This document shows, one piece after another, positions 4,301 through 61,676 of a DNA stretch of 64,000 nt. Below the pieces are notes generated by a model. It saw nothing but the letters and a program-made list of their open reading frames with translations, was not told the origin of the DNA and made no database searches. Source of the stretch: Deltaproteobacteria bacterium (GTDB taxonomy: Bacteria; Desulfobacterota; Desulfomonilia; UBA1062); NCBI GenBank assembly GCA_018436855.1, contig JAHDKO010000016.1, forward strand, positions 7,286 through 71,285, given 5' to 3'. Within the stretch, counting starts at the first letter, position 1. Each line of letters begins with the position of its first letter. The translations under genes and the position numbers were made by a program.

Positions 4301-4343
4301 GGTATTATTCTTTGAGCAGGAAATAAATTGAGCACAAAAAAAG
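4301..4343 (-). promoter_or_regulatory. Conserved element A, copy 1 (candidate activator-dependent promoter)
   Basis: +strand ggtattattctttgagcaggaaataaattgagcacaaaaaaag. Matches the consensus GTATTATTCTTTGAGnGGGAAATAAAACGnCnnCAAAAAAAA seen at 9 other loci. Confidence 0.5.
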
Positions 4344-4376
4344 AGCCAGTTCCCTTTTCAGGAAACCAGCTCTTTT
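4336..4376 (-). terminator. Candidate rho-independent terminator after gene 4390..4605
   Basis: Imperfect 13-bp stem (agagccagttccc / ggaaaccagctct) followed by a T-run on the minus strand. Confidence 0.35.
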
Positions 4377-4389
4377 GGTCTATAACTTT

Positions 4390-4605
4390 TTAATACATCA
4401 ACGGCATGAATAATCCATCTCCTCCTTTGAAAGTAAACCCTATCGGGCCAAGTCTTTCTCCAGGATAGAGTTTTAGATCACCAAAAACCGTCGCAAGGCG
4501 AAGTATAAGCGATGCATCAATATAGCCATCGTTCTTCCAGGGGTACTTGCACCGTTCGCTGTCTGGGTTACAGAATGGGGCCAATATTTCAGCCAATGTC
4601 TTCAT
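4390..4605 (-). CDS. hypothetical protein (71 aa)
   Basis: ORF with good coding-like composition in a same-strand array. No recognisable motif. Confidence 0.35.
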   Translation of the reverse strand: MKTLAEILAPFCNPDSERCKYPWKNDGYIDASLILRLATVFGDLKLYPGERLGPIGFTFKGGDGLFMPLMY

Positions 4606-4617
4606 AGTACACTCCTT

Positions 4618-8229: not shown

Positions 8230-8239
8230 GGTAATTCTC

Positions 8240-15861: not shown

Positions 15862-17019
15862 TTAACTCAGTCGTTTACCCAAAACTTCCTGGATAGCCCT
15901 TGACAGCTCTATCATCGCATACGGCTTTTGGAGCACCTTTTTCACGCCGAGCTTGTGTAATTTTCCCCTGGTAACCAGATTGCTGTAGCCGGTGCATAAG
16001 ATTATTGGGAAATCAGGTCTTTTTTGCAGAACCTTCACCGTGAGTTCTTCGCCGTCCATCTCGGGCATATTGATATCAGAGATCATGATGTCGAACCTGT
16101 CAGGCGTTTCCATGAAGAGGTTCAGGGCTTCCTTCCCGTTTGAGGCAACAGCTACTTCGTATCCATCCCGCTTCAGAACCTCCTTGGCGAGAAATGATAC
16201 ATTCTGCTCATCGTCCACAAAAAGAACCGTATGCCCGGTTGGTCTATGTTCCTGCACATTCTTGATTAACAAGTTTTTCTTTTGTTCTTGCTGTCTATCT
16301 CCCTCTTCACACATAGGGAGATAGACGGTGAACGTGGAGCCCTTTCCCTCATTGCTTTTACAGGTAATAAATCCCTTGTGAATCTTTACGATCTCGTCAA
16401 CGATCGCAAGCCCCAGGCCGTTTCCGTCTTCTTTTGTCGTAAAGTGCGGTTCAAAGATCCTGTCAACCAGCTTATCGGGAATGCCTATTCCTGTGTCGGA
16501 TATGGACATAATCATATAATTTTGCGGTGGCATGTTCCCTGTATCCAAGACCGTGTTCTTAACCTCGATCCCGATCTTTCCCCCTCCCGGCATGGCCTGG
16601 ATGGCATTAGTGCAGAGATTCATGAAAAGGCGATTCATCTGGCCTATACTGGTCATAATGTCGCCCGTTATATTGAGATTGCATTCAATGATAATATCTC
16701 TGGGTACGAATGCACGAACCATCTCAATGAATGTTCGCATGACAGGCTCAATAGTCACCCGCTCAAAGTTGGCATCCCCGTCTTCTTTCAGGGTAAATAT
16801 CTGCTGAATAAGGGTTCTCGCCTGTTCTGCAGCGTTTGCAGCATTACCAAGGCTGGCTTCCACCTCTCCAGGATTATCCAGGTGAGCCTTCGCCAGCTCG
16901 ATACAGTTTATCACTACGGTAAGAATATTATTAACATCATGCGCCACACCTCTCGTTCTGGTTCCGGGTTTCTGGTTTGTTCTCCCGTAAGAAAAACTTT
17001 CCTGTTGCTGAGTGATCAC
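15862..17019 (-). CDS. Hybrid histidine kinase (HisKA-HATPase-REC), no sensor domain
   Basis: H-box HDVNNILTVV, HATPase G-boxes (DTGIGIP, GLGL) and a C-terminal receiver VLFVDDEQNV...DINMPEMDG. Confidence 0.8.
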   Translation of the reverse strand: MITQQQESFSYGRTNQKPGTRTRGVAHDVNNILTVVINCIELAKAHLDNPGEVEASLGNAANAAEQARTLIQQIFTLKEDGDANFERVTIEPVMRTFIEMVRAFVPRDIIIECNLNITGDIMTSIGQMNRLFMNLCTNAIQAMPGGGKIGIEVKNTVLDTGNMPPQNYMIMSISDTGIGIPDKLVDRIFEPHFTTKEDGNGLGLAIVDEIVKIHKGFITCKSNEGKGSTFTVYLPMCEEGDRQQEQKKNLLIKNVQEHRPTGHTVLFVDDEQNVSFLAKEVLKRDGYEVAVASNGKEALNLFMETPDRFDIMISDINMPEMDGEELTVKVLQKRPDFPIILCTGYSNLVTRGKLHKLGVKKVLQKPYAMIELSRAIQEVLGKRLS

Positions 17020-17040: not shown

Positions 17041-17634
17041 TTAACAAAGTTCTTTAAAGGCTTTACCGGAAGCCACCAGCTTGGTTCTTTCCCCTAAATG
17101 CCAGAGTATTTCGTCTACCTGATCCTCGATTTTTCGTGATCGGATCACATAGACCTTTTCCCTATATCTCTCAAGAATTTCGGATAACTCTCCGAAAGAG
17201 GCTATCTGCTCATTGCTCTCATTCCCATCCAGCAACATGAACGCGATCACATCATATATTTTCTCTGCATGGTGGAGCGCATACTTGGAAAATCGGGCTA
17301 CATCATTTTTAAGAGATGATTTTTGAGCGGGTTTTTTTGGGTTAATTTCGCAGGAGCATCTTGCTACAATTTCAATAGCACTCTCAATTGTGGTTCCATC
17401 TGCCACAAAATAAGGCAAGTTTGTTTCTTTCCAAATTTTATCGAAAAGAATATCCTCCTTCATCCGAAAAAACATATTTATCGGCATCTTGCCAGGGCAT
17501 ACATCCTTGAAAAAGTTTGATCGAATCCACTCATCTGCGCGATTTTCCAGAAACGGACACACCAGTTCCTCGCTCAACCTTCTTGCTAATTCCATTCTGG
17601 TTTTCAGCTCAACTCCACAAATAGCGATCCTCAC
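17041..17634 (-). CDS. Degenerate P-loop paralog of the 2294..2875 NTPase (Walker A lost)
   Basis: MRIAICGVELKTRM aligns with MRIAISGSEGTGKS. YFVADGTTIESAI aligns with FVADRSVADNVAY. GTG start with AGAGGGGGA RBS. Confidence 0.45.
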   Translation of the reverse strand: MRIAICGVELKTRMELARRLSEELVCPFLENRADEWIRSNFFKDVCPGKMPINMFFRMKEDILFDKIWKETNLPYFVADGTTIESAIEIVARCSCEINPKKPAQKSSLKNDVARFSKYALHHAEKIYDVIAFMLLDGNESNEQIASFGELSEILERYREKVYVIRSRKIEDQVDEILWHLGERTKLVASGKAFKELC

Positions 17635-17670
17635 GCGACAAATCCCCCTCTAAAATTTTGCGTTCATGTT

Positions 17671-17714
17671 GGTATTATTCTTTGAGGGGGAAATAAAACG
17701 CCGGGAAAAAAAAT
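17671..17714 (-). promoter_or_regulatory. Conserved element A, copy 2
   Basis: ggtattattctttgagggggaaataaaacgccgggaaaaaaaat, 36 nt upstream of the GTG of 17041..17634. Confidence 0.5.
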
Positions 17715-17780: not shown

Positions 17781-18083
17781 TCAGGTTTTCTTGCGCGTCT
17801 GAATGAAATCCTTGATCTCTCCGATAAGATGATCAAGATCATCATCCCCGAGAATATACAAGTCCTTCTTGCTTGCCTCGATATTCTTAGCCCGATGTTC
17901 TCTAAGCATATACTGGACGATTCGCTCGATGGTAAGTGGAATCTTGAGATCGCCACGCAGATACCGGCTGGCAGTCGGTTGTCTCACGCCGATACGCTCA
18001 CCAAACTCCGTTACGCCCAACCCAAGCTCTTTCATGGCCTCGGCAAGATCGCCGGGTGTCATTGTGCCAACAATCACTTTCAT
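17781..18083 (-). CDS. HTH DNA-binding protein
   Basis: VTEFGERIGVRQPTASRYLRGD is a helix-turn-helix. Confidence 0.5.
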   Translation of the reverse strand: MKVIVGTMTPGDLAEAMKELGLGVTEFGERIGVRQPTASRYLRGDLKIPLTIERIVQYMLREHRAKNIEASKKDLYILGDDDLDHLIGEIKDFIQTRKKT

Positions 18084-27711: not shown

Positions 27712-27713
27712 GA

Positions 27714-27759
27714 GGGTATTATTCTTTGAGCGGGAAATAAAACGCCCTCAAAAAAAATA
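27714..27759 (-). promoter_or_regulatory. Conserved element A, copy 3 (abuts the trbC start codon, leaderless geometry)
   Basis: gggtattattctttgagcgggaaataaaacgccctcaaaaaaaat. In gene orientation AATAAT-N6-ATG. Confidence 0.5.
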
Positions 27760-32195: not shown

Positions 32196-32199
32196 ACAT

Positions 32200-32243
32200 G
32201 TATTATTCTTTGGGCGGGAAATAAAACGGGAACAAAAAAAATG
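32200..32243 (-). promoter_or_regulatory. Conserved element A, copy 4 (5 nt from the start codon)
   Basis: tgtattattctttgggcgggaaataaaacgggaacaaaaaaaatg. Confidence 0.5.
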
Positions 32244-41373: not shown

Positions 41374-41377
41374 GCTG

Positions 41378-41420
41378 GTATTATTCTTTGTGCGGGAAAT
41401 AAAACGGCTTCAAAAAAAAT
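41378..41420 (-). promoter_or_regulatory. Conserved element A, copy 5 (fills the gap between dsbC-like and ompA-like genes, AATAAT-N6-ATG)
   Basis: ggtattattctttgtgcgggaaataaaacggcttcaaaaaaaatg. Confidence 0.5.
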
Positions 41421-43446: not shown

Positions 43447-43477
43447 GATTGCCTCCTTATTTTTTTTGATCTCCTTG

Positions 43478-43521
43478 TGCTTATTCTTTGAGAGGGAAAT
43501 AAAACGGCTTCAAAAAAAATG
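43478..43521 (-). promoter_or_regulatory. Conserved element A, copy 6 (upstream of parM)
   Basis: tgcttattctttgagagggaaataaaacggcttcaaaaaaaatg. Confidence 0.5.
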
Positions 43522-43676
43522 AAGGGGATTGACAACCATTAATAAAATAGGTATAAGCGAAAGTCCTATATGGTTTTTGCCCCCACTTGGATAACTGCCA
43601 TGCGGTTACCGGGTGGGGGCTACTCATTTATTCCCCGATTAAAACCGTTCTTATAATACAGTGTAATCGAGAAAGT

Positions 43677-44950: not shown

Positions 44951-45459
44951 GGTTTGGCGATCTTTGGAATTGTTTTTTGGTGGCTTTTTGTTTTGTGCAT
45001 TATTTTGTTTTTTTTATTCGCCGTGTTTTTCGGGGTGGTTTTAGTTTTTCGGTGCATTTTGGTCTGATTTTTCGTCCAAAAATTTTCGCTGTGGAGCCGC
45101 TTCAATCCAACATTCGCCAGCCACGGACGGGCGAAGCCCGTCAAAATATTTTTAGACATTTGTAGATATTTTTCGAGATAAACCCTTAATATATGGTTTT
45201 TTCTTATCCGCGTCTGATCTCTCATCTCTCGCCCATCTTCCTTCGCCTTCTTGATACCCTCTTTATCTTCAGAGGTATTCATCTGATAGTCATAATGTTT
45301 CGGTATATTCTAAAAGCCTTCCTGGTCGTATTAGAGCAACAATTTTAATTTAGCTTGTTATTTTGGTATGTTACGTATTCACTTTTTATTTCGTTCTTTA
45401 TTGGATCGCAATATATCCAATAATTATGGTATGTTATCGTTTTTTTTGCCCTTATTTTC

Positions 45460-45495
45460 TTTTTTGTCGTTTTATTTCCCCTCCAAAGAATAGTG
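45460..45495 (+). promoter_or_regulatory. Conserved element A, copy 7 (plus orientation)
   Basis: ttttttgtcgttttatttcccctccaaagaatagtg, 20 nt upstream of GGAAGGAG and ATG 45515. Confidence 0.5.
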
Positions 45496-45514
45496 AACTT
45501 GGAAGGAGTTATCT

Positions 45515-46086: not shown

Positions 46087-46130
46087 TATTTTTTTTTCAG
46101 GCCGTTTTATTTCCCTCTCAAAGAATAAGT
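46087..46130 (+). promoter_or_regulatory. Conserved element A, copy 8
   Basis: tttttttttcaggccgttttatttccctctcaaagaataagtc. Confidence 0.5.
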
Positions 46131-46152
46131 CGGTAACAGGGGTAATTTTTTT

Positions 46153-46338: not shown

Positions 46339-46594
46339 CGATAAATCGCAGAAACCACGTTCGCGCAAGAAAGCCAAGGAGGCTGATTTCATCACGCTTC
46401 CTTCCTTTGACGTACACCCGTTTAAGGTTGAGTTGAAGAAGCTCGGTGTACGCAACTGGCAGATAGCGAAGATATGCGGGATATCGTATGGCTACATGAG
46501 TCATATCTTAAACGGTGTTGTTCCCATGCCTGATCGTGTAGCCGAGAAAATCAGCGTATTTCTCACTCAGCGGGGTGTTGACATCGATGCGTGA
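46331..46594 (+). CDS. HTH (XRE-like) transcriptional regulator
   Basis: LGVRNWQIAKICGISYGYMSHILNG is a helix-turn-helix. Confidence 0.55.
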   Translation: MTNDKSQKPRSRKKAKEADFITLPSFDVHPFKVELKKLGVRNWQIAKICGISYGYMSHILNGVVPMPDRVAEKISVFLTQRGVDIDA

Positions 46595-49758: not shown

Positions 49759-50130
49759 TCACACAACCCCTTCCATCTCTTCGGCGGCAATCCATTTCCC
49801 GTTCTCGTCCCGCACCTCGACCTTGATATTTTCGGGATTCATGCTCTCATCCACGAGCTGTTGAATACTCTTTCCCTTTCGCAACTCGTGGACTTTACGA
49901 GCATGCCAAACCTTGAACTTGGCCGACTGAACCAGCCGCTGCAGGGCGAGTTTCCTGTTCGCATGTTGACTCCGTTCCGACCGGGATTCTCCCACGGCCC
50001 CGGATTCCCGATGCACGATCCTCACCCCGGACTCGGTTTTGTTCTGATGTTGACCGCCAGGACCACCAGATCGAAACACCTGGATATCGAGATCCTTCCT
50101 GGTAATACTGAATAAAAACTCCTTACCCAT
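49759..50130 (-). CDS. GGQ-motif peptidyl-tRNA hydrolase / release-factor (RF-1) domain protein (ArfB or RF-H-like)
   Basis: [66 protein letters not shown] is the class-I RF catalytic domain with the universal GGQ. The antisense ORF 49645..50115 was rejected. Confidence 0.65.
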
Positions 50131-50191
50131 AATAGTCACCCTTCTTGAAAAACTTATCAGAATTAAGACCACATTCCATGAGAGTATCGTG

Positions 50192-50650
50192 TCAACACTC
50201 AGTCTTTCCGTAATATTTTTCATATTTATTATGTAATTCAACATCAAGTTTTTTATTTTGCACTGTTTCAGCCTTGTTGTACAACATATTGATTGCTCGT
50301 TTATAAGAATATTCATCACCCCATGATTTTATCAGTTTATCATGAGATCTCAGCACCATAATTTTAAGAAATGCACTATTCGAATAATGATCCCGGACAA
50401 ACTCTCCGAAATTTGCGAGATACCGAGTTTTCTCTAGTCTGTTTATCTTTACTTTCCGGGTCAGCGAAATCATTAAACAGACTCCAGCCATGATTACTGC
50501 CGCTACAATAGCGTATCCTGAAAATTCTAATATACACACAAATAAGGCAATAAAAACACAGATCAAACTTAAAAAAAATAACGAATCCAACATCTCGAAA
50601 AAATCCCGTGTTTTTTTCAATTCTATCATCTGATCATTACTTAGTTTCAT
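50192..50650 (-). CDS. membrane protein, hypothetical
   Basis: 152 aa with two TM helices near the N-terminus. Confidence 0.45.
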
Positions 50651-50966: not shown

Positions 50967-51899
50967 TCACTTCCCGATCAACAAAGTTCCCAGAAAAGCC
51001 AGCCATCCAAGAACAGTAATCCAGATCAGTTTCCAGGATGTCTTCGTGATCCTCACGATCTCGACGTTACCCGTGTCCAGGTCCTCGACCTTCTGAGCGA
51101 GAAAATGCCCCAAAGCCGTTGGAGTAGTAAAACTCTTGTCGGACAACATCTGCGCCAGGGTTACATCGCTGGCATGTCCGAGAGCAGTTATTACCGGAGT
51201 TTTCATCGCCAACATCTGACGGGCAATTGCCGGATCATCGAATACTTCCAGATTGCTTCCCCCTCCCCTGACCAGGGCAATCAGATCGCATTTGCCGTCA
51301 GCCCGTGAGAGTACAGACACCACAGCGCGAGGATCAGAGAAATCCGTCCTGGTTTCCGTAATCGCGTATCGCTCAACAGCGTTACCAAGTGCGCTCATTA
51401 CGTCCTTATCCACGATCCCGCTTTTTCCGTAGATCATGTTGATCCTGGGCTTTTTCCCTTCTGCGATCATACCGATCAATACACCGCCAGCGTCCTTTTT
51501 CCCGATCCTGACTTTTCGCTCCAAAAGCTCGGCCCTCTCGATGATCCGAGTATCCACCTGACTGCCAGCGGCATCAACCTGGGTAGGAACGAAACTCACC
51601 TGAATGCCGGCAGCTCCCGAAGCCCTCACCATCTCCAGAACTCCCCGAAAGCTGTATGCATATCCCGGCTGCAGTTTCACCCGAATCAGTGCAGGCATCT
51701 TGAGCTTGAGCATTTCCCTGGTTTCCTGATCTACAAGTGAATCATAAAAGAAACCTCGGTAGGATTTGCCGTTACCGTGCTCGTACACTCCCCGAACGAA
51801 CCAGACAGTACCCGTGACAACCCTGGTTGCTTCACTCAGGATTATACGGCTCAATTCTCCCGGCGTGATGATCTTCGGTTCGTTCTTTTTCGCAGCCAT
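50967..51899 (-). CDS. Exonuclease VII large subunit (XseA)-like protein, truncated, with C-terminal TM anchor
   Basis: N-terminal OB-fold region (ITPGELSRIILSEATRVVTGTVWFVRGVYEHGNGKSYRGFFYDSLVDQE) and a core IALVRGGGSNLEVFDDPAIARQMLAMKTPVITALGHASDVTLAQ that matches the XseA RGGGS...GHExD region. C-terminal WKLIWITVLGWLAFLGTLLIG is hydrophobic. Confidence 0.6.
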   Translation of the reverse strand: MAAKKNEPKIITPGELSRIILSEATRVVTGTVWFVRGVYEHGNGKSYRGFFYDSLVDQETREMLKLKMPALIRVKLQPGYAYSFRGVLEMVRASGAAGIQVSFVPTQVDAAGSQVDTRIIERAELLERKVRIGKKDAGGVLIGMIAEGKKPRINMIYGKSGIVDKDVMSALGNAVERYAITETRTDFSDPRAVVSVLSRADGKCDLIALVRGGGSNLEVFDDPAIARQMLAMKTPVITALGHASDVTLAQMLSDKSFTTPTALGHFLAQKVEDLDTGNVEIVRITKTSWKLIWITVLGWLAFLGTLLIGK

Positions 51900-51925: not shown

Positions 51926-52261
51926 TTATTCGATAACCACGAGTGCTCCCTGCTCTTCCAGCTTTTTCTTGGCGAGAAAAGCATTCTCGGAATCGACCAA
52001 TTCCAGAATCTTTGACGGTGTATTTTCGGAAAGATCCTTTGCCTCCTTGAGCCCGAGATTCGTTACCTCGCGAATCATCTTGATAACACAGATCTTAGCC
52101 TTTCCGGCATCCATCAACACAACATTCACCAGTTTTTTCCCGAACAGACGCACGATGACTCCAGGCTTTTCCGCTGCCAGCTTGTAAAACATTTCCTTGA
52201 ATTCCCCATCCTTAATGTTGCCCAGAATCTCGATTGCCTCTGCGTAATAGTTTCTGCCCAT
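51926..52261 (-). CDS. Ribosomal protein bL12 (L7/L12)-like protein
   Basis: C-terminal [59 protein letters not shown] matches the L7/L12 CTD ([27 protein letters not shown]...AEALKKALEEAGAEVEVK). AAGGAG RBS. Confidence 0.7.
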   Translation of the reverse strand: [111 protein letters not shown]

Positions 52262-52580: not shown

Positions 52581-52677
52581 AATACTATTTGTGATATTTT
52601 ATAATATCAAACTGGTTTGTTATTGTATTAGTAAAATTATAATTGACTTTTTTTATTTATTGTGATATGAGTCGCCC

Positions 52678-53694
52678 ATGATGATAAAAATGGCAAATGT
52701 CAACGACCTGATATTCGACCCCAATACGTACCTGAAAAAATATAACCAAACCGTGTTGGACAAGGCCATGTCATGCATCAGCTCGGGTATCCCCTGCCCT
52801 CCTGTTGATATAGATGCAAATATGCGTATCATAGGCGGTCACAAACAGTGGATTGCGTCAGTAAGAGCCCGGAAGAAAACTGTTCCGGTGCGTGTGCATA
52901 ATCTTATCAGGTCCGACACAGACGCACTCATGTTTGCCTGTAAGCAGTTATCGGACACGCTTACTAGCGACGAGCGCAATACTGCAATCGCGCTTACGCT
53001 CAATTCAATCGATGATCCGGCTCAACAGCCGATCATAAAAAACACCTTATCTGAAATCCTTAGAGTGTCGCTGCTCGATATAAACAAGGCAAAAATTGAA
53101 TACAACATGGACAGCAATGAAAATGAGAATTCCGCTATCGTGTCTCTGTACTTGAACAGTCACACAGTAGCTCAGATATCACGAAAGCTGTCTATATCCA
53201 AATACTTCGTTATCAAAACATTGACCGAAGAAGGGTTATATACATCTCAATACAAAATGCCCGATCTTGAACAGGCCGATATTGACGATTTCATAGGCAA
53301 CTCCCTTGATGATGCCATTTCCCGCAAAGACGATGAAATGGACATGCTGCTCGAAATGATGGAGGGAACCTGCGCGTCTTTGACGGAAGAGTTTAATCGT
53401 TACGGTATGACTCTCGACAATTTTAAGGAAAACGTCCGATCAACACGATCCCAGGCTGACAAGGCAACAAATTCGCTCGTTACGCTGCTTGAACGTTTGC
53501 GCTCAACGATCCCTGTCCTGAAAGATCCCAAAATGATAGATGAGTTACTGCTGGAGCTTCAGCCCCTTGTTGCTGTTTCCAAGGAATTTATCAAAATTGT
53601 AGAACAATACAAGGGAGATTTCGGCCAGCCTGATACACCGCTGTCCTTGATGAAGAAACATTACCTGAAGCTGATCGAGGCTGCAGAAAACTAA
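52678..53694 (+). CDS. ParB/Srx-fold N-terminal domain protein
   Basis: VNDLIFDPN...PPVDID...RIIGGHKQWIASVRARKKTVPVRV resembles the ParB N-terminal nuclease-like domain (GERRWRAA box). Confidence 0.5.
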   Translation: MMIKMANVNDLIFDPNTYLKKYNQTVLDKAMSCISSGIPCPPVDIDANMRIIGGHKQWIASVRARKKTVPVRVHNLIRSDTDALMFACKQLSDTLTSDERNTAIALTLNSIDDPAQQPIIKNTLSEILRVSLLDINKAKIEYNMDSNENENSAIVSLYLNSHTVAQISRKLSISKYFVIKTLTEEGLYTSQYKMPDLEQADIDDFIGNSLDDAISRKDDEMDMLLEMMEGTCASLTEEFNRYGMTLDNFKENVRSTRSQADKATNSLVTLLERLRSTIPVLKDPKMIDELLLELQPLVAVSKEFIKIVEQYKGDFGQPDTPLSLMKKHYLKLIEAAEN

Positions 53695-54950
53695 GCATCG
53701 ATGGGTCTGATCACTCCCCCGAACCCCTGGTAATCCCCTCCCCTTATATTCAGGGCAATCCCTATGTTCACATCGATCAGCTTTTCGTCCCAGGTTTTTA
53801 ATTTTCCTGTTATTTCCTCAGTCCACATTTTCTGGGGATTTTCCCGGTACGACAAGGCCCCGCGAACTAATGCATCCGCAAATAATTCCAGAGTATAAAT
53901 GTCAAACATTGATACACGGGCATCGTGAATTAATTGCTCGACACTCCATCCTAATAATTTTGTTGCATATGAAGAGATGTAAGTGAATTCCAGCTTGTCG
54001 TTCACCATCCACACAATACCCTCGATCTGTTCCGTAAAATACTCAATGAATTTAGGATTATAAAGAATACTATTCCCTATGACGGACTTCTCGGCATCAT
54101 TCCAGATCGGTGGATCAATTTTTAAAATTACGTTCCCGCTGCCATCGGAGATAACTCGTGTAGAACACATGCACACCCCTTTTGTCCGGGTAACGTACCG
54201 AATATTTTCAGTGATGATTTTCATCCCCCCGCTGCTTTTGCCGCTCATGTGTTTTTTCAAAAAAGCCACATCATCGGGATGCACGAATTTGGCTATATTA
54301 CGCGCCAACATTTCCCCGTATGCTCGGTAGCCAAAAATATCCTCGATACTGTAGGGCGCATAAAGAATAGTTCCATTCCCGTCAGTGAAGATGTTGTATG
54401 ACGATGTTTGGGTTATGGTTGCCGGGATGGAATTGATTTCCTCATCATGAATGATTTTTAAAAGATCATTGCATATGATTCCAAGCGATATTTTTTCACT
54501 GACCTTAATAATTTCAATTAAATCATTCTGTTTCCACCTTAAATCTTCATCCGACTCAACAACCAGGACACCCAAAAAATCATCAGACCCCAGGTGCGCC
54601 CGTGTGATGAAAACCGATTTGACAAGCAACGAGCGTATTTCCTGATCCACAAGTTTATCCTGATCACCGGAAGAGAACATGTCCAGTGTTCCGGGGAGTA
54701 GTATATCCATCTTGATTGCGCCAATAAATGTTTCCGGGTATTTCGCCGTCCAATCGAATTGAGCATTATCATTATTATCGTACCATATCTCCCCGGATTG
54801 TTTATCCGAATGCATCTGCACAATCGGCCTCATGGTCATTTTATTCAGATCAACAATCTCATAAAAGATCAGCCGCTTCCCAGGAGAATACTTGGACAGA
54901 GCTGTAACGAGAATTAGCCGCGAAACATCTGTAATACTCGACATTTGCAC
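53691..54950 (-). CDS. PAS/GAF-domain sensor protein without recognisable output domain
   Basis: Two PAS-like segments (NIFTDGNGTILYAPYSIEDIFGYRAYGEMLARNIAKFVHPDD and EGIVWMVNDKLEFTYISSYATKLLGWSVEQL). Confidence 0.55.
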   Translation of the reverse strand: MQMSSITDVSRLILVTALSKYSPGKRLIFYEIVDLNKMTMRPIVQMHSDKQSGEIWYDNNDNAQFDWTAKYPETFIGAIKMDILLPGTLDMFSSGDQDKLVDQEIRSLLVKSVFITRAHLGSDDFLGVLVVESDEDLRWKQNDLIEIIKVSEKISLGIICNDLLKIIHDEEINSIPATITQTSSYNIFTDGNGTILYAPYSIEDIFGYRAYGEMLARNIAKFVHPDDVAFLKKHMSGKSSGGMKIITENIRYVTRTKGVCMCSTRVISDGSGNVILKIDPPIWNDAEKSVIGNSILYNPKFIEYFTEQIEGIVWMVNDKLEFTYISSYATKLLGWSVEQLIHDARVSMFDIYTLELFADALVRGALSYRENPQKMWTEEITGKLKTWDEKLIDVNIGIALNIRGGDYQGFGGVIRPIDA

Positions 54951-55048: not shown

Positions 55049-55083
55049 TTGACAATTAGTGTAATTTCTGGTATAGAGACAGC
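55049..55083 (+). promoter_or_regulatory. Sigma70 promoter TTGACA-N17-TATAGA positioned for a leaderless transcript of the XRE gene
   Basis: TTGACA at 55049-54, TATAGA at 55072-77 and ATG at 55084, so the -10 ends 6 nt before the ATG. Confidence 0.45.
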
Positions 55084-55395
55084 ATGAAGCCAAAAGAGTA
55101 TATCAGAAAATACAAAATAAAGCAGAAACAAATGGCGAAAGACCTGGATATAACGCCGGGTTATCTGTCCGGGATCATCAATGGGACGCGAACGCCTTCT
55201 CTCGACCTCGCTTGTCAGATCGAGAAATACTTCAATTATGAGGTATCGCGCCTGGAGTTGTTGTATCCAAATGAAGATTGGAACATTCTCAAGAACCCGA
55301 TTCCTCTTCCTTCACCGTCATCCGCTCCCGCGACAATCATCTCCAGTGACACAAAGAAAAAAGTGCTGGACATCATCAGGGGATCTAAGGATTGA
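55084..55395 (+). CDS. XRE-family HTH transcriptional regulator
   Basis: QKQMAKDLDITPGYLSGIINGTRTPSLDLACQIEKYF is a canonical XRE HTH. Confidence 0.6.
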   Translation: MKPKEYIRKYKIKQKQMAKDLDITPGYLSGIINGTRTPSLDLACQIEKYFNYEVSRLELLYPNEDWNILKNPIPLPSPSSAPATIISSDTKKKVLDIIRGSKD

Positions 55396-55862
55396 AGCCC
55401 CTGCCCCTTCTCCCCATGTTCGCGTTTTGGCTTATATCCTCGGGGTTTTGCTTCGAGCAGGCAGGCAGCTATTATAATATTTCGCCCATCCTGCTCAGTG
55501 CAATATCCTGGGTGGAGAGCAACCATACGCCAGGGGCGATAAACCACAACCGCAACGGGTCCGTTGATTGTGGACACATGCAAGTCAACTCTTTCTGGGC
55601 AGATAAAATCGGCCCGGATTATCAGTATCTAAAAGGCAAAGAACCCGAGCACTCCTGTTATCAAACATATGTCGGGGCATGGATACTGCGTCAATGCATT
55701 GATCGATACGATCAGACATGGGATGCAGTAGCCTGCTATCATGCAGGGCATGGTCTGAACAGACTCAAGGGTGCATCAAAAATACGCGCAGAAAAATATA
55801 TCGGCAAGGTCAAGGAGGCTATCAGAAAAAACAAAATTATCACAACGCTCGTGAAGGAGTAG
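55392..55862 (+). CDS. Lytic transglycosylase (VirB1/P19/F-orf169-like)
   Basis: Signal peptide and an SLT catalytic region LLSAISWVESNHTPGAINHNRNGSVDCGHMQVN. Confidence 0.7.
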   Translation: MKPLPLLPMFAFWLISSGFCFEQAGSYYNISPILLSAISWVESNHTPGAINHNRNGSVDCGHMQVNSFWADKIGPDYQYLKGKEPEHSCYQTYVGAWILRQCIDRYDQTWDAVACYHAGHGLNRLKGASKIRAEKYIGKVKEAIRKNKIITTLVKE

Positions 55863-55865: not shown

Positions 55866-56705
55866 ATGGCTGAAATTGACGGAATTGACAGCGAAGTTCG
55901 GTCATCAACTAGAAGATTATCACTACGGGCTCTCTCAAACATTATGCCCGAAGGCAATGTGAGGGTTGAGTCCGCACAGATTGCCGACCTCGCAATTCTT
56001 GAAGCCGCTGATATTTGTCGCCAGAACCCTGAGAAGAATATTAAGCGGGTAGCCCACCGCCTTGTGCAGCGTTATATCACACAGTTACACTCCGATCCTT
56101 ACCGTTTTCTGTCCCGCGCCACCATAGATTCGGCAGCGTGTATCGAAGACATACTCAAGATTATCGGTCACAAGCCTACACGGAATTTTACCAGCATCAA
56201 TATCACTTTGTATCAGCGAAAGGATCTCAACAGTACACTACGGCACTATCGATACAATGTATCGATTCTTGGCCGGAATATTAAAATCAAATCCTCTCCT
56301 TCGGGCCTTGACATCATGGGTAATTTGCGCTGCTATATCAGACCTGTCGATTTTCCCGGCAACTCAGCGGACGATTACTCGATTAATAATCTCATAGACC
56401 AGCACTCATACAATGAGTGGAGAGACAATCAGAGCGGAAACGAGGCTTCTGAATCTCCTAAAGTCGATCCCGATCTTTTGCTCCATCTTTCGCAATGCAT
56501 CATGTTCCTGAATTCCAACCGCCGTCACTTCCTTATTGAGTCGTTTGGATTATGGGGTTGCGAACAATCTTCCACCTTTGATCTGGCAAAAAAATACGGA
56601 CTGACACCCCGTAATATCAGATACGAAATCGATAAAGCCCTTGCTGAATTGAAAGAGATAATGTCTCGCAACGACGATAAGGCAACCAGTAAGCATAGTC
56701 TGTAA
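55866..56705 (+). CDS. Sigma-70 region-4-like HTH protein (candidate element-specific transcription factor)
   Basis: C-terminal LSQCIMFLNSNRRHFLIESFGLWGCEQSSTFDLAKKYGLTPRNIRYEIDKALAELKE matches the sigma70_r4 pattern (ReR.vl.lrfGL.g.e.tl.Eig..fgvTreRIRQIE.kAL.KL). Confidence 0.5.
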   Translation: MAEIDGIDSEVRSSTRRLSLRALSNIMPEGNVRVESAQIADLAILEAADICRQNPEKNIKRVAHRLVQRYITQLHSDPYRFLSRATIDSAACIEDILKIIGHKPTRNFTSINITLYQRKDLNSTLRHYRYNVSILGRNIKIKSSPSGLDIMGNLRCYIRPVDFPGNSADDYSINNLIDQHSYNEWRDNQSGNEASESPKVDPDLLLHLSQCIMFLNSNRRHFLIESFGLWGCEQSSTFDLAKKYGLTPRNIRYEIDKALAELKEIMSRNDDKATSKHSL

Positions 56706-56747: not shown

Positions 56748-57035
56748 ATGCATAGCAAATCCGAGAGTGTGGTGGCATTCATCAAGGAGTTGACAGAAAA
56801 GCATCAGATGGAAAAAATTGTCCTTATGTCCCGTATTCAGGAATTAGAAAAAGAAAACCAGCAGCTCCGGGAACAATCCGAACCATCGCTGCTTTTAAAC
56901 AAGGGGGTTATTCCCTTTATCCAGTTCTCGTTCAAATTTATCGAGGATATCATGAATACTCTCGATGATGAATCCCGCGCCAAAATACAGGAGATATTAA
57001 ACAAAGAGGACGAACCGGATCATTCCTCTGTCTGA
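56748..57035 (+). CDS. coiled-coil hypothetical protein
   Basis: GGAGGGTATC RBS. Heptad-like QELEKENQQLREQ. Confidence 0.4.
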   Translation: MHSKSESVVAFIKELTEKHQMEKIVLMSRIQELEKENQQLREQSEPSLLLNKGVIPFIQFSFKFIEDIMNTLDDESRAKIQEILNKEDEPDHSSV

Positions 57036-57721
57036 TTATTTTTTTTGTTTTTTTTGAGAATTAATATTTCGCCCATTTCACGTGCTATTTCCCTGATATG
57101 TTCTTTTTTAACAAATGTATTTGTTTCAACGATACTTTTCACTCCGACAATTCTTTTAATGCATTTGAAATCGCCCCATGGATAATAATATCTCAATAAA
57201 GCGGGAGCCATACTGATTGTGTTCCTGCTGACAAATACCGAGCACGGCCTGAGCACTTTATCGACATAAAACATCATGGAGCTTCCGCAACTATATCCAT
57301 CCCGCGAGTTCCATCGATGTCTCATCATGATTGCTACCCATCCGTTCAAATCCACGTGTATTTCCTGGGCGGTAATGCGTACAACGGTTCCCCGCACGGC
57401 TTCATGGACCTTCTCCCTCCACCGCCTATAATTATAATCGTCCTCGATATACGTCAAACAATCCGGTAATCGCTGTCGCACCGCCTTTGTTACCTCCGCT
57501 GGCAACCTATCAAACTCTATGGGTATATAAGAGTGATTCCTATAAAACCATGCCTTGACAGTACCATTGTTAATTTCCGCATACGCCTCACCCTGGAAAT
57601 GTTCGGAAAGCACTGTTGCCAAAGTAAGTTCCAGACCGTCCTTGACAATTTGAGGGTTGGTGTTTCTCCATTTGCACACATCCGTTATGAATGATTCAAA
57701 TGTAGGTCCTGCGGCTTCCAT
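57020..57721 (-). CDS. hypothetical protein (233 aa)
   Basis: ORF divergent from 57792 with shared element A copies between them. Confidence 0.4.
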   Translation of the reverse strand: MEAAGPTFESFITDVCKWRNTNPQIVKDGLELTLATVLSEHFQGEAYAEINNGTVKAWFYRNHSYIPIEFDRLPAEVTKAVRQRLPDCLTYIEDDYNYRRWREKVHEAVRGTVVRITAQEIHVDLNGWVAIMMRHRWNSRDGYSCGSSMMFYVDKVLRPCSVFVSRNTISMAPALLRYYYPWGDFKCIKRIVGVKSIVETNTFVKKEHIREIAREMGEILILKKNKKNNQTEE

Positions 57722-57733
57722 CGTATTATTTCC

Positions 57734-57790
57734 TTTTTTGTCGTTTTATTTCCCGCACAAAGAATATGTTCTTTGAGGGGGAAATAAATT
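57734..57790. promoter_or_regulatory. Conserved element A, divergent pair (copy 9: one minus-oriented and one partial plus-oriented copy, back to back)
   Basis: ttttttgtcgttttatttcccgcacaaagaatatg followed by ttctttgagggggaaataaattg. Serves divergent genes 57020..57721 and 57792..58067. Confidence 0.5.
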
Positions 57791-57791
57791 G

Positions 57792-58067
57792 ATGAAAAAA
57801 CAAATCCTCGCAGTGTTGACACTATTGTTTCTCGTATCGATTATCGCAGCCATTGGGTGTGAGAACAGTATTCGTGAGTATTTTCCGAGGTTTGATGGTA
57901 ATCTTTATGCTTCGGGGAGTATTTTTCTTTTTGGGTTCACATATGCCATGGTCGTTCGGAACTTTATTATTTTTTTTATTTCAATGGCAGCGGCCATTGC
58001 TACACCGTGGGTTGCCGAGTGGTTTCACTCTCACTGGCCGTACATAATCCACATAATGACAAATTAG
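57792..58067 (+). CDS. small membrane protein
   Basis: Three hydrophobic helices. ATG 57792. Confidence 0.45.
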   Translation: MKKQILAVLTLLFLVSIIAAIGCENSIREYFPRFDGNLYASGSIFLFGFTYAMVVRNFIIFFISMAAAIATPWVAEWFHSHWPYIIHIMTN

Positions 58068-58077
58068 GAGGATTGAC

Positions 58078-58821
58078 ATGGGTAAGGGCTCTCTTTCATC
58101 GGCGGCAGTAATACCCATTGGTGACTCGAAAAAAACTACTCGACGGCTCCCGCATCTGATTGACGCGATGAGCGATATTCAACAGTATTATATTTTCGAA
58201 TCAACGGGTCAGGAAATACCTCATGAATTTCTCACCATAAGAGATTCTCTCGGATTTTTTAACACAGGTTTTGGAGCCGGTTTTTTTGAGGGGTTAATGT
58301 TTTCCATCCTGCTCACGATATGTATGCCACTCGTAATCGACACACATGCTATGAACGTCCTGACTACGGCGATCCCGTTTTTGGGCTCTCCCTGGTTTCT
58401 CATTTTCTTTTCCATAACCCCGGTTCTCTTCGCATGTGCGCTGTGCTGCTGGATGGGTAAATACTATGTTGGCAGCATAACCAAACGGGCAATCGATAAT
58501 TTATTGCTTGGCCGCGCCACTTCCCTGTTTCTCACAGGTTTTTTGCTGTTCACCATCCTTACAACAGTGGGTGCGTTGTTAACTCCTGCCAGGGCATACA
58601 GTGCCGGCATGTATCTGGCGGGAGTGTTTCCTGCTGGATCTATGATTCCGCAGACTGTGTATGATATTTTGCTGAACCTTCCTCCGATCATGGTGCGCCG
58701 GGCTATTCATCAGGGGATCATATTAATAACAGGTGTTGCGCTTCCCTACCTCACAATATGGGGAGTCGTTTATTTTCGAGATCGTTATATTTCGTACCAA
58801 AATTCCAAAATAGGTCACTAG
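58078..58821 (+). CDS. polytopic membrane protein (possible TM domain of a split type IV coupling protein)
   Basis: 247 aa with 5-6 predicted TM helices, immediately upstream of the ATPase. AGGAGG RBS. Confidence 0.45.
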   Translation: MGKGSLSSAAVIPIGDSKKTTRRLPHLIDAMSDIQQYYIFESTGQEIPHEFLTIRDSLGFFNTGFGAGFFEGLMFSILLTICMPLVIDTHAMNVLTTAIPFLGSPWFLIFFSITPVLFACALCCWMGKYYVGSITKRAIDNLLLGRATSLFLTGFLLFTILTTVGALLTPARAYSAGMYLAGVFPAGSMIPQTVYDILLNLPPIMVRRAIHQGIILITGVALPYLTIWGVVYFRDRYISYQNSKIGH

Positions 58822-58830
58822 GAGAATAAC

Positions 58831-60171
58831 ATGTTTAAAAGAAAATCTGATCGCATTCTTGTCGGGACCGGGAAGATGCTCAATAAATTTGGGAAAGAGC
58901 TTCCCAGGATTATGTCGTTGGGAATTCCTAATGCATATCGCAAATCGCACATGTTCTGCTTCGGAACCACCAGGGTAGGAAAGACAAAGCTGATTGAAAC
59001 CCTCATTGAACAAGATATACGCGCAGGCAGATCGGTACTGCTTCTCGACCCAAAGGGTGACATTGAAATATTCAGCAAGATCGTCCAGGTTGCATCAGAG
59101 GTTGGTCGTGAAAACGAGATCACGCTGGTCACTCCTATATTTCCGAATTATTCCGGGAAACTCTCGCCATTGACGTATTACTACATGCCCGAGGAAATTG
59201 TAGGTCATATCACGAGTGGTATTCAGGCCAAGGAAGAGTTTTTTGTCAATATTGCATACGAGACAACGCTTGTGATCGTGCTCTCGCTGTTGCTGTTTGC
59301 CGAGCACGAAGGTAAGCCCTACCGGATCAGCATACAGGAGATTAAGGATCGCGCATCATACCAGGGGTTGTGTGAGTTGCAGGACCGCTTAAACAATCTC
59401 CCCTACTCCGACAAGAAAGCGGACATTCTCTCTACTCTCGATCAGGTATTATCCTCTCCGCAGGACTATTTTTCCAAAGTATCATCTTCTCTGCGTACCA
59501 TGCTCACCACATTATCGACCGGCAGCATGAGGCAGATCATTGGTGGTACAACCCAGAACGAGTTTATTCATGCGCTTGAAGTCGGAAAAAGCGTGATCAT
59601 GGTTGTTCAGTCCGGTGCTCTTCTTACCGGGAAAACATCGCACACAGTATCCAGAATGCTCGTATCGATGATCCAAACATTTGCCGGCAGGCGGTTTGCC
59701 TCTGGCCGCACTGTCACCCCCCCATTGTGCGTGTACATGGATGAGGCCGCAAACCTCATGTATCATGGTGTCGAGGATTTGTTCTCTAAAGCAGGAGGCG
59801 CAGGGGTTTGGCTGCATGCGTTTTCACAGTCTCTTGCCGATCTTGATGATGCCATTGGCCCCGCTGCTGCCCGGAGAATTCTCGATAATACCAACACCAA
59901 AATTTTTATGCGTGTCAATGATCCCAATACCAGTAAGTACATCTCGGAGTACGCTGGAGACATCAATCGCTTTTCTCCAGTGCTTTCACTCGGCGGCGGG
60001 ATGAACATCAGAGAAGTTGATGAGCCCTTGATTCGCCCGGAAGAGGTCCAGAACCTAAAAGAAAGGGAGTTTTATCTTTTCTCGTTCGACGGCGCGTTCA
60101 AGGGGACAGTACGCACAGTCAAATCTCCCAAGCAAATAATCGAATTTCCACAGGTGGAGGTGAACCAATGA
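58831..60171 (+). CDS. traD: FtsK/HerA-superfamily ATPase, probable type IV coupling protein (TraD/VirD4-like) soluble domain
   Basis: Walker A FGTTRVGKTKL near the N-terminus and Walker B VYMDEAANL about 255 aa downstream. That spacing is typical of T4CPs. No N-terminal TM region. Confidence 0.5.
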   Translation: MFKRKSDRILVGTGKMLNKFGKELPRIMSLGIPNAYRKSHMFCFGTTRVGKTKLIETLIEQDIRAGRSVLLLDPKGDIEIFSKIVQVASEVGRENEITLVTPIFPNYSGKLSPLTYYYMPEEIVGHITSGIQAKEEFFVNIAYETTLVIVLSLLLFAEHEGKPYRISIQEIKDRASYQGLCELQDRLNNLPYSDKKADILSTLDQVLSSPQDYFSKVSSSLRTMLTTLSTGSMRQIIGGTTQNEFIHALEVGKSVIMVVQSGALLTGKTSHTVSRMLVSMIQTFAGRRFASGRTVTPPLCVYMDEAANLMYHGVEDLFSKAGGAGVWLHAFSQSLADLDDAIGPAAARRILDNTNTKIFMRVNDPNTSKYISEYAGDINRFSPVLSLGGGMNIREVDEPLIRPEEVQNLKEREFYLFSFDGAFKGTVRTVKSPKQIIEFPQVEVNQ

Positions 60172-61634
60172 TATTTTATATCCTTATGATTCCACTTATT
60201 ATATTGTTAATTTACCTCATCTTCTGGGGTGATAAATTATTCCCTGATAAGCGGGTACAGCAAGCCGAAACCGGGGCAGTGACACTTGAAGAATTGGCAA
60301 ACAAGCTCTGGCTGAAACGAGAACGGGAGCTTGAGGATGAGTTGGCATCAAAAACCAAAGAGTCTATAATCACGCTCGATCCTGTCGTTCCTGTCGAGGC
60401 TGTTCCTGAGCCCGAGCAGCCTACTCCCAAGGAATCACCTACCCCCGCAAAACCGAAACCGGATGTTCCTGCTCAACAAGTGGATCAGGAAGTGAGTTCT
60501 CTGGTTCCCGAGATTCCTCATGCAGAAAACAATAAATGGAATCATCAGGAGCTGATCGACTTTGAAAATAACTTCGTCAGTCAATACAGGAATATCATTG
60601 CACAGTCTCAGCACATCATTCCGCTGCAAAAAGTGATGGAGATTCTTGATACTTATGGAGATCAGCCTTCCATTGTCTCTATGAATGATGATGATGAGTA
60701 TAAAATTCTTGGAAGTCATTACGCCACTTTCACCCAGATAACATTACTGCAACACTCTCTCAATGTTGTCTATGAGCTTGGAAAAATAATCGAAGAATCC
60801 GGCTCTCGTGATGCGAAATATTCCATGGGAAAATATATTCTTATGTGTCTTGGACACGACATCGGCAAGATCACCGAATTTCTGTCCAGTGATTATATTA
60901 CTGGAAATCATCCCATTATTTCTGCGGGTAAAATGATGGGCATACTTCCCCCAGGCACTCCGGGCAGGGATGATATTATAAACGCGATCAGGAATCATCA
61001 TGTAAGGAGTGCCAAAAATAAATCCACAATTTTACTCAGACAGGCCGATTCCAGGGCAAGAGAATACGAAGCTGAGTCCGTATCCGTTGAAAAGGCCGTC
61101 CTGGTGCGAGATCTCCTGACAGACGACCCAAACCCTGAAGCAACGAAAATTAAAAAGAAGCCCAAAATCACTGAGGCCGTTGATTTGTCTTGGGTTGATT
61201 GGGACGATGTTATTTCAAAAATTGATGAAAATATAAATGTTCCTAATGAAAACAAGTGGGTAAACGCAATTTCGGTTAGCGACGGGTACATTTACATAAA
61301 GCCTGTTCTCATCAATAAAATTATATGGCAGCAGGCAAAAGAAAAAGAAATTACCGAGTTCACGGTTTATTCCATAAAGGACAGGGAGCGGTCGGACGCT
61401 GTATCAAATTCTGTCGCAAATTATTTTCGGGATCAGTACGCTATATCCGAAACCATAAATAGACCTTATTTCACCCGTAAATTCAAACTGGTAGACAAGG
61501 ATAATAATGTTGTAAGGTCAGGTTTTTATACAGCGATCAAGGCTGAAATGTTTAAAACCCCCCTCGATGAACTAGAAGAAAGAAAACTCAATCTCGAATG
61601 GCTCATGAAAATAAAAAACGTTATTCCTGGCTGA
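60168..61634 (+). CDS. HD-domain protein with N-terminal TM helix, candidate MOB_H-type relaxase
   Basis: HD motif LLQHSL...CLGHDIGK (H...HD.GK). An NHHV triad. N-terminal MIFYILMIPLIILLIYLIF is a TM helix. Pro-rich linker. Adjacent to the T4CP as traI-traD are in SXT-like elements. Confidence 0.45.
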   Translation: MIFYILMIPLIILLIYLIFWGDKLFPDKRVQQAETGAVTLEELANKLWLKRERELEDELASKTKESIITLDPVVPVEAVPEPEQPTPKESPTPAKPKPDVPAQQVDQEVSSLVPEIPHAENNKWNHQELIDFENNFVSQYRNIIAQSQHIIPLQKVMEILDTYGDQPSIVSMNDDDEYKILGSHYATFTQITLLQHSLNVVYELGKIIEESGSRDAKYSMGKYILMCLGHDIGKITEFLSSDYITGNHPIISAGKMMGILPPGTPGRDDIINAIRNHHVRSAKNKSTILLRQADSRAREYEAESVSVEKAVLVRDLLTDDPNPEATKIKKKPKITEAVDLSWVDWDDVISKIDENINVPNENKWVNAISVSDGYIYIKPVLINKIIWQQAKEKEITEFTVYSIKDRERSDAVSNSVANYFRDQYAISETINRPYFTRKFKLVDKDNNVVRSGFYTAIKAEMFKTPLDELEERKLNLEWLMKIKNVIPG

Positions 61635-61676
61635 TTTTTTTTGAGGGCGTTTTATTTCCCCCTCAAAGAATAAGTC
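61635..61676 (+). promoter_or_regulatory. Conserved element A, copy 10
   Basis: ttttttttgagggcgttttatttccccctcaaagaataagtc, directly after the stop of the HD-domain gene. Confidence 0.5.

Follow-up and report, generated by a model that had tools for sequence, protein, structure and literature searches.

Along a 64,000-nucleotide stretch of contig JAHDKO010000016.1 from a Deltaproteobacteria bacterium (hereafter the window), which judging from its gene content is the backbone of a conjugative and probably integrative element with an F-type type IV secretion system (T4SS), a conserved ~45-bp box recurs ahead of genes at eleven places. We consider it likely that these copies constitute a private promoter class of the element, read by a sigma-like factor of its own. 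Comparative and positional evidence lends good support to the promoter interpretation, namely the placement, orientation and geometry of the repeats and their conservation with concerted variation across related elements, and the proposed reader is put forward on account of its domains and distribution. To our knowledge, only a small number of conjugative element families have a known master-regulator regulon, and most of these come from clinical Gammaproteobacteria and Firmicutes. The system described here would be a further variant of such a regulon, with a potentially new sigma-like family belonging to it, and would supply a sequence-defined regulon for an uncultivated, environmental element family of Thermodesulfobacteriota type, where the whole transfer programme becomes readable from DNA as 11 promoters plus 2 canonical early promoters, all of them predicted. 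Literature searches found no paper describing the box, the protein family or leaderless tra genes, and nothing directly comparable on plasmid-encoded sigma factors in conjugation.

The transfer genes of the window encode TraL, TraE, TraK, TraB, TraV, TraC, TraN, TraU, TraF, TraH, TraG, TrbC, an S26 peptidase, TraT and a type IV coupling protein (T4CP) followed by an HD-domain protein; they are accompanied by envelope and redox genes (DsbC-like, OmpA-like and VKOR) and by genes of DNA metabolism and maintenance (UDG, ParM, type IA topoisomerase and resolvase). A tyrosine integrase gene is situated just past the right end of the window and a ParB-like gene past the left one. Searches of PHROGs and NCBIfam returned nothing for most of the unknown proteins. 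Among complete plasmids, that of Desulfosarcina sp. BuS5 comes closest (TraC 47% identical), named homologs of the T4CP belong to Desulfobacterales and other Thermodesulfobacteriota, and megablast of 20 kb against PLSDB gave no match. The host is probably a member of the Desulfobacterales. Homolog searches provided three relatives, designated B, C and D, the window's own element being A. Element B is represented by contigs L036-38 (TraU 77% identical) and L042-44 from the same samples, linked via a homolog of the 279-aa candidate reader described below; C (L028-35, TraU 78% identical; full contig JAKQPH010000567.1, 80 kb) is an integrated element, and D is contig L045, also linked via a 279-aa homolog. 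C and D share two short intergenic stretches of 85-90% identity and may belong to one lineage.

An oriented box at eleven intergenic sites

The original prediction, made from the letters of the window, reported at least 11 copies of a ~45-bp element, and the same number was obtained here both with a core pattern and with a profile. The consensus typed there, CGTTTTATTTCCCnnCTCAAAGAATA, carries one base too many and has 0 matches even at 3 mismatches, although the repeats listed are real. The true core reads TTTATTTCC[C/T]-NNN-CAAAGAA[T/C]A, and its corrected form TTTATTTCCCNNNCAAAGAA is matched 11 times in the window (10 times exactly and once with one mismatch) against 0.52 matches expected and a maximum of 2 in dinucleotide shuffles. 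The profile of 48 nt, built from the copies as the prediction had proposed, recovers the identical set with E <= 3e-9 and yields 0 matches in the BuS5 plasmid; since the next match after these has only E = 1.7, the window holds exactly eleven copies (Table 1). Within it the near-invariant unit can be written as ATTTTTTTT-N5-CGTTTTATTTCCC-NNN-CAAAGAATA. The hexamer AATAAT, proposed as the -10 element, follows the core in only 5 of the 11 copies; the invariant part is CAAAGAATA, with AGAACA in a single copy, so that the conserved element on the -10 side is AGAATA and not AATAAT. The lack of a recognisable -35 was seen correctly, as no TTGACA-like sequence occurs upstream in the box copies.

Each of the 11 copies lies between genes and points toward the one that follows, in agreement with the claim that orientation always follows the downstream gene. 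They head the operon from the OmpA-like gene through traC to the 731-aa gene, the 143-aa/traN/traU, trbC-traG, 197-aa/kinase/traT, 173-aa/topoisomerase/ParB-like, 92-aa/T4CP/HD and 176-aa/VKOR/UDG/integrase units, parM, the NusA-like gene and two units of small genes near a repeat-rich non-coding region, and the suggestion that the box fronts both the tra/T4SS genes and parM is borne out. Two copies foreseen inside same-strand gene arrays were located at the traU/trbC and DsbC-like/OmpA-like junctions, and the single divergent locus with two copies corresponds to the pair 57745+ and 57769-. In this pair the two AGAATA blocks abut back to back, and in B and D they make up a perfect palindrome. 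Read on the other strand, the C-rich box of one member is the Shine-Dalgarno (SD) site of the opposite gene: TTTCCCCCTC of copy 10 is GAGGGGGAAA on the plus strand, the SD of the gene at 57789. The pair is kept in B (L042:13327/13362) and D (L045:10493/10528), copy 11 has orthologs in B (at the end of L042) and D (L045:14410), and the ortholog of the 197-aa gene behind copy 2 is also boxed in C (L029:20929). The open reading frame (ORF) 46268-46594 downstream of copy 8 has a partly conserved counterpart in B.

Table 1. Box copies, canonical promoters and candidate regulatory genes, in window coordinates
Feature	Position	Strand	Core	Upstream context and start signals	Genes downstream
Copy 1	4299..4342	-	4308-4327	strong terminator hairpin ahead of T-run; ATG at 4297 opens a 30-codon ORF	173-aa gene (3669-4190), DUF488, AAA_28, topoisomerase, ParB-like gene
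Copy 2	17670..17714	-	17678	ATG at 17667 opens a 5-codon ORF (MNAKF*); then SD GAGGGGGA	197-aa gene (17041-17634), hybrid kinase, TraT, bPH_2-domain gene
Copy 3	27714..27758	-	27722	between traU and trbC; ATG at 27711 is the trbC start, no SD	trbC-traG
Copy 4	32198..32242	-	32206	terminator hairpin and T8 ahead; ATG at 32195 starts the 143-aa protein	143-aa membrane protein, traN, 218-aa gene, traU
Copy 5	41375..41420	-	41384	between DsbC-like and OmpA-like genes; ATG at 41373 in leaderless position	OmpA-like, 130-aa gene, traL, traE, traK, traB, traV, traC, 731-aa gene
Copy 6	43477..43521	-	43484	36-nt leader with SD AAGGAGG	parM (42460-43446)
Copy 7	45454..45497	+	45471	leader with SD GGAAGGAG	182-aa gene (45515-46063)
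Copy 8	46090..46132	+	46106		small genes from 46153
Copy 9	57728..57771	+	57745	plus member of the back-to-back pair	92-aa gene, 247-aa gene, T4CP (58831-60171), HD-domain protein
Copy 10	57765..57806	-	57769	minus member of the pair, AGAACA variant	NusA-like 233-aa gene (57020-57721)
Copy 11	61634..61678	+	61651	after the HD gene	176-aa gene, VKOR, UDG, 67-aa gene, integrase (the last two just outside the window)
Canonical sigma70-type leaderless promoter	55049..55086	+		TTGACA-17-TATAGA-6-ATG	XRE gene
Second canonical leaderless promoter	52643..52680	+		TTGACT-17-TATGAG-6-ATG	338-aa gene
Candidate specificity factor, 279 aa	55866..56705	+			
Coiled-coil protein, 99 aa	56736..57035	+			

Such a set of repeats might represent a small mobile repeat, similar to miniature inverted-repeat transposable elements, or a passive "mobile promoter" cassette without dedicated regulator, and in favour of this stand the difference in copy content among the sister elements, since the traU/trbC copy occurs in A only, and the break of short-read assemblies at the copies. 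The unit, however, is asymmetric and has neither terminal inverted repeats nor target duplications, its strict intergenic co-orientation is described above, and orthologous positions are kept across elements. The distribution that would have betrayed a mobile repeat, copies scattered in unrelated genomes, was looked for by exact-pattern scans of GTDB representative genomes (596 Gb), IMG/VR and JGI metagenomes, which gave 11, 2 and 10 matches, respectively; all are single, fall in unrelated taxa and appear at about the chance rate. None of them contains the extended motif except L014, which is a short-read contig of the same element. Both the element and the box are essentially absent from these three collections, and we regard an origin of the pattern in mobility alone as highly improbable. 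In the Logan assembly of SRR13787013, contigs of the same element (L039, L040) begin at or just past box copies, as the 45-bp repeat fragments de Bruijn assemblies of the element. The copies at 17665-17679, 27709-27723 and 32193-32207 share sequence that continues past the box into the first codons (ATGA[A/G]CGC[A/G]AA), which suggests that promoter and start codon were copied together as a cassette; at 17678 the shared start sequence leaves a relic ORF of 5 codons ahead of a normal SD.

A function at the level of RNA, as terminator, attenuator, structure of the 5′ untranslated region or AU-rich landing pad for SD-independent ribosome entry, deserves next to no credence, even though in 3 of the 11 copies the T8 run follows a GC-rich hairpin (-13 kcal/mol or stronger) and doubles there as a terminator tail, and at trbC the box replaces the SD inside a same-strand array. 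In the remaining 8 copies the T-run has no hairpin and the copies as a class do not behave as intrinsic terminators; the box itself folds weakly (-1 to -10 kcal/mol) without shared structure, and Rfam covariance models applied to the whole window gave no match at the gathering threshold. A generic scan for sigma70 promoters and terminators performed no better than on shuffled sequences.

Putative promoter layout and start codons

With the A of an abutting ATG taken as +1, a T-rich tract extends from -46 to -39, where an UP element would lie, followed by CG at -33/-32, TTTTATTTCCC at -31 to -21, three variable bases, CAAAG at -17 to -13 and AATAnn at -12 to -7. The box covers ~-33 to -9 at 11 promoter-position sites, all co-oriented, and thereby lies at or across the -35 position, as do the boxes of SetCD/AcaCD-type promoters. 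Starts abutting AATAAT-N6 had been noticed for trbC, the OmpA-like gene and the 143-aa gene; these three are confirmed as long ORFs, but the number of copies with this layout is five, the two others opening ORFs of 5 and 30 codons. In all five the ATG lies exactly 6 nt past AATAAT (8 nt past AGAATA), and two copies of B, which read AATAAG and AATAGG, have the same spacing from AGAATA. One of the orthologs of this type in B stands ahead of the 143-aa counterpart (L037:6302), with a distance to ATG identical to that of copy 4, and in the ortholog of copy 7 (L042:1796) the ATG occupies the leaderless position. Copy 5 has a second ATG 12 nt beyond 41373, behind a G-run that is a possible SD. The other six copies are followed by leaders of 30-70 nt with ordinary SD sites. 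A general role of the box in translation is thereby excluded, which also speaks against the RNA-level interpretation.

The arrangement has a particular form at trbC, where the gap following traU amounts to 75 nt in the window and consists of a motif-bearing segment with no SD left, while the same junction in B and C is 11-16 nt long and retains an SD; for this reason copy 3 is a lineage-specific gain, and the copy content is seen to evolve. The window's trbC start aligns with the start of the TrbC proteins of B and C, and the signal peptide begins right at the abutting ATG (MNAKKKIILIAIF...). TrbC is a standard component of F-type pilus assembly. Because the SD is lost and the ATG abuts the box, expression of this gene in the window's element most plausibly depends on the box.

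The spacing of hexamer, 6 nt and ATG found in the box copies is also that of two canonical promoters of the same element (Table 1). Element B has the same canonical arrangement ahead of its XRE ortholog (L042), and element C contains two TTGACA/TTGACG-17-TATAAG-6-ATG promoters (L029); leaderless starts appear common in this element family even at ordinary promoters. Lambda cI transcribed from PRM and tetR of Tn1721 are leaderless genes in which the -10 hexamer ends 6 nt before ATG and the SD is absent. The XRE repressor-like gene of the window has just this layout under a canonical promoter, whereas in the box copies it serves T4SS and envelope genes (trbC, OmpA-like, 143-aa) under a non-canonical promoter and with a spacing fixed in two sister elements. 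The constant distance between the putative promoter and ATG offers a natural model in which to investigate how genes for membrane and secretion functions are expressed without a leader, in a host whose other genes rely on SD sites.

Concerted variation of the box and its candidate reader

The sister elements carry their own versions of the box: TTTATTTCCC..CAAAGAATA in A, TTTTTTTCCC..CACAGAATA in B and TTTCAC..GTAGAATAT in C and D. In B the form ATTTTTTCCC-NNN-CACAGAATA was found at four places, namely ahead of the ortholog of the 143-aa gene (142 aa in B), ahead of the 182-aa ortholog, at the divergent pair, which is flanked there by the NusA-like and the 91-aa gene, and past the HD gene, where the contig ends within the box. 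In D the divergent pair and the site past the HD gene carry TTTCAC-N4-GTAGAATAT, and C has a box of the D type ahead of the 197-aa ortholog and ahead of a small gene preceding the integrase. The core common to all elements is TTTC[AC][CT]-N6-AGAA[TC]A (TTTCMC-N6-AGAATA), conservation out to -33 being limited to A and B. It occurs 11 times in the window (0.18 expected), 3 times in 17 kb of B (L042) plus once in L037, 3 times in 20 kb of D and twice in 21 kb of C, with 0 occurrences in the BuS5 plasmid (108 kb) and 0 in a relative from the Desulfobacterales that has a T4CP of 61% identity. If one trans-acting reader served all copies, changes at orthologous sites would be expected to run through a whole element and to differ from one element to the next, as they do here; the history of insertions predicts no such pattern.

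Candidate for this reader is the 279-aa protein at 55866..56705, already pointed out as "sigma-r4-like" in the original prediction. Its region 4 (residues ~199-270 at the C-terminus) is confirmed by NCBIfam (E 5.9e-6), by a PDB sequence search retrieving RpoS region 4 (E 5e-4) and by Pfam Sigma70_r4, which matches 3 of 4 family members; it has the -35-binding helix-turn-helix with the FGLxG...T..E.....GLT..R.R motif. An apparently sigma2-like helical domain forms the N-terminus, and a beta-rich insert of ~90 aa lies between the two. The gene belongs to an operon with XRE (55084-55395), SLT (55392-55862) and the 99-aa gene under the canonical promoter 55049-55086 and not under a box, and the layout is the same in B. 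An exhaustive HMMER search of 1.84 billion representative proteins disclosed only 3 homologs (E <= 4e-35), all in the same XRE-SLT-x synteny, so that the family counts four representatives at 50% identity; a word-indexed homolog search had recovered the query alone. Among the neighbouring genes it is the most diverged, with 41% (B) and 34% (D) identity as compared to 43-89% for ten other genes between the 338-aa gene and the HD gene. Where the locus could be examined the gene co-occurs with the box, and so far it is found only in box-carrying elements; neither the BuS5 plasmid nor the syntenic stretch of the distant box-less Desulfobacterales relative contains it. The sigma70-family gene of BuS5 has no counterpart in the window, and its hhalign comparison with the 279-aa family was negative. 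In element D a single protein of 365 aa (L045:8472-9569) combines the sigma-like part with the 99-aa homolog (51% identity in the partner part, E 6e-25), and because of this fusion the 279-aa and 99-aa proteins likely work together, the 99-aa protein probably being the partner. The factor looks more like a divergent sigma than like a classical activator.

From these data we infer that the copies are promoters and that the 279-aa protein reads them, and a cascade of two tiers is the simplest model. Host sigma70 holoenzyme would transcribe the XRE/transglycosylase/279-aa/99-aa operon from its TTGACA-N17-TATAGA promoter, after which the highly divergent sigma-like factor, probably with its 99-aa partner, would direct RNA polymerase to the box. 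This would switch on mating-pair formation, DNA processing by T4CP and HD protein, parM-mediated partition, genes resembling a leading region (topoisomerase, ParB-like) and integration. At five copies transcription is expected to start at the ATG 6 nt past the hexamer or within ~3 nt of it, so that trbC, the 143-aa gene and probably the OmpA-like gene would be expressed from leaderless mRNAs. Alternatives to the cascade are activator action or sigma appropriation, repression through part of the box as an operator, and plain sigma70 assisted by an UP element.

Several observations weigh against such a reading. TTTCMC and AGAATA are separated by only 6 bp, in place of the 16-18 bp usual between the -35 and -10 elements of a factor with sigma2 and sigma4 domains, and no pair of shared blocks at this larger distance was found. 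The 279-aa family gives no Sigma70_r2 match by sequence, and the co-occurrence of the sigma-like gene and the box is documented for elements A, B and D only. The copies that bear the ATG share the additional sequence ATACCnnnATG, so their spacing does not represent five independent events, and the putative -10 hexamer is variable in its last two bases, the T at -7 being not conserved.

Host sigma70 together with the T-tract as UP element could suffice without any factor of the element. The copies would then be strong host promoters in which the alpha C-terminal domain contacts T8 as a proximal UP element and AATAAT/AGAAT is the -10, the rest being conserved owing to recent duplication. The T-tract indeed sits at the position of the proximal UP subsite, the -10-like hexamer stands 6 nt from ATG just as at the canonical promoters, and the traU/trbC copy is a recent gain with an adjacent partial duplication. 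The block from -31 to -13, however, is invariant within an element and changes in concert at orthologous sites that have otherwise diverged, for which reason duplication history alone fails; the T at -7 is not conserved, and the same elements use TTGACA-N17 promoters for other genes, implying that two promoter classes coexist. We hold this explanation to be unlikely.

The block might also be mainly an operator by which a global repressor of the element (XRE, KorA/KorB-like or ParB-like) controls otherwise ordinary promoters that it overlaps, as in IncP plasmids; we rate this as improbable. Two XRE-family genes (55084-55395 and 17781-18083) and the ParB-like gene just left of the window could supply the protein, and the box overlaps the -10 to -30 region in which repressors act, which is compatible with the promoter reading as well. 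The KorA/KorB operators of IncP are short conserved sequences at many backbone promoters. Those global operators are palindromes that work in both orientations, whereas the window's box is asymmetric and always faces its gene; A shows a weak TTATT/AATAA dyad, which is lost in B and D, and with the box subtracted no -35 remains for sigma70. A palindromic operator was rejected on the same ground of the dyad not conserved in B and D. Also discarded were a sigma54-type -24/-12 promoter, as there are no GG/GC elements, and a promoter for a T7-like single-subunit RNA polymerase, to which the box bears superficial likeness of T3/T7 layout if the G of CAAAG is taken as +1: no such polymerase gene is present in the window or 3.5 kb past its ends, and every large ORF is better assigned.

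Returning to the private promoter class, its nearest functional analogues are the regulons of SetCD in SXT/R391 and AcaCD in IncA/C elements, which the original prediction had named. The likeness holds in function: an oriented box fronts many operons of an element with F-type T4SS, including tra, xis/int and divergent promoters, and these have no recognisable -35. The Dtr (DNA transfer and replication) module of T4CP and HD-domain protein, dsbC, traC, the S26 peptidase and traU/traN are also content reminiscent of the SXT/IncA/C group. SetCD is a class II activator whose 19-bp box lies at the -35 or immediately ahead of it, in promoters with poorly conserved -10 elements (PMC4344509), and AcaCD shows a class 2 profile (PMC4207636). 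In contrast, the window's conserved block runs through the -10 region, the factor is sigma-like, several promoters look leaderless and the sequence of the box is unrelated to the SetCD/AcaCD boxes. No protein of FlhDC type was found, in that FlhC and FlhD gave no Pfam match among ~80 larger ORFs of the window, those below ~80 aa not being scanned exhaustively.

Regulons of alternative or extracytoplasmic function (ECF) sigma factors in phages and plasmids resemble the system in that an element-encoded protein with sigma2-like and sigma4 parts is combined with near-identical promoters having two blocks at a fixed spacing, and that factor and promoter diverge together between relatives. The differences lie in the missing sequence-detectable region 2, the ~90-aa beta-rich insert, the separate or fused coiled-coil partner and the distance between blocks of 6 bp instead of 16-18. 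Middle promoters of phage T4 combine a MotA box at -30 with a sigma70 -10, AsiA remodelling region 4. In the window, too, a conserved box at ~-30 to -20 replaces -35 and is joined to a -10-like hexamer, but no homologs of MotA or AsiA were seen, the box sequence differs and the -10-side block is part of the invariant motif. Orf7 of Tn916 is sigma-like. With Orf8 it represents small element regulators activating a promoter that leads into xis/int and transfer genes (PMC5812530); there, one promoter works with read-through, in the window a multi-promoter regulon is proposed, and the likeness drawn is one of description.

A broader idea, which we advance tentatively and would not call the probable one, is that a small clade of Desulfobacterales-type conjugative elements possesses its own orthogonal transcription layer, in which a structurally atypical sigma redirects the host's core RNA polymerase to compact, -35-less TTTCMC-N6-AGAATA promoters, many firing at the ATG to give leaderless T4SS mRNAs, and factor and promoter co-evolve (CAAAG, CACAG, NGTAG), insulating co-resident elements from each other. 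The main reading, for its part, is a concrete and cheap hypothesis, involving one 279-aa protein with or without the 99-aa partner and one 30-bp box, and the variants of the sister elements would form a natural specificity set. Should the factor prove a true sigma, it would stand for a very divergent branch of the sigma70 family with unusual promoter geometry and would provide an orthogonal promoter/factor pair for synthetic biology.

Neighbouring genes and the repeat-rich region

Between the divergent copies 43484- and 45471+ there are ~2 kb (43530-45450) of mostly non-coding DNA with low GC (38%), where the only ORF of at least 80 aa (44815-45282, 155 aa) has no Pfam hit. The region contains 3 copies of AAGAGAGCAGTTATGGCGTTTA at intervals of ~94 bp as well as two repeats of 72 nt that have CCCCC/GGGGG arms, and is likely a replication origin, centromere or oriT region. 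An iteron or centromere role was considered for the box itself and dropped, as its copies are dispersed and gene-oriented and this repeat-rich interval at 43.5-45.4 kb fits better. No classical relaxase domain was seen in the window; the 488-aa HD-domain protein, which follows T4CP (the two together at 58831-61634) and precedes the stretch with VKOR, UDG, the 67-aa gene and, just outside the window, the integrase (62147-63780 and L039), is possibly a MOBH-type relaxase.

Genes related to translation and RNA metabolism form a further part of the neighbourhood. A 111-aa protein (51926-52261, minus strand) has a match to the L7/L12 ribosomal protein in its C-terminal domain (Pfam E 3.7e-20). Only A has this gene, which B and D lack at the syntenic position, and it makes odd cargo for an element that seemingly relies on leaderless translation. 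An RF-1-domain protein similar to the peptidyl-tRNA hydrolases ArfB/ICT1 (49759-50319, minus strand; Pfam E 5.6e-21) shares 86% identity with its counterpart in B and 83% with that in D, and a gene resembling the ExoVII large subunit (50967-51899) lies near it. In the 233-aa product of the gene headed by copy 10, residues 67-177 match part of the NusA model TIGR01953 (E 8.6e-10); the gene is kept in B, D and the BuS5 plasmid, where it is located near the sigma70-family gene. A PAS-domain gene (53691-54950, minus strand), divergent from the XRE/sigma-like operon, is kept in B and D, and a hybrid histidine kinase/receiver (15862-17019, minus strand) is found in a box-driven operon; both proteins are possible sensory inputs to transfer. 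In element B, an insertion of IS605-family TnpB (L042:11228-12460) separates the 98-aa partner gene from the NusA-like gene.

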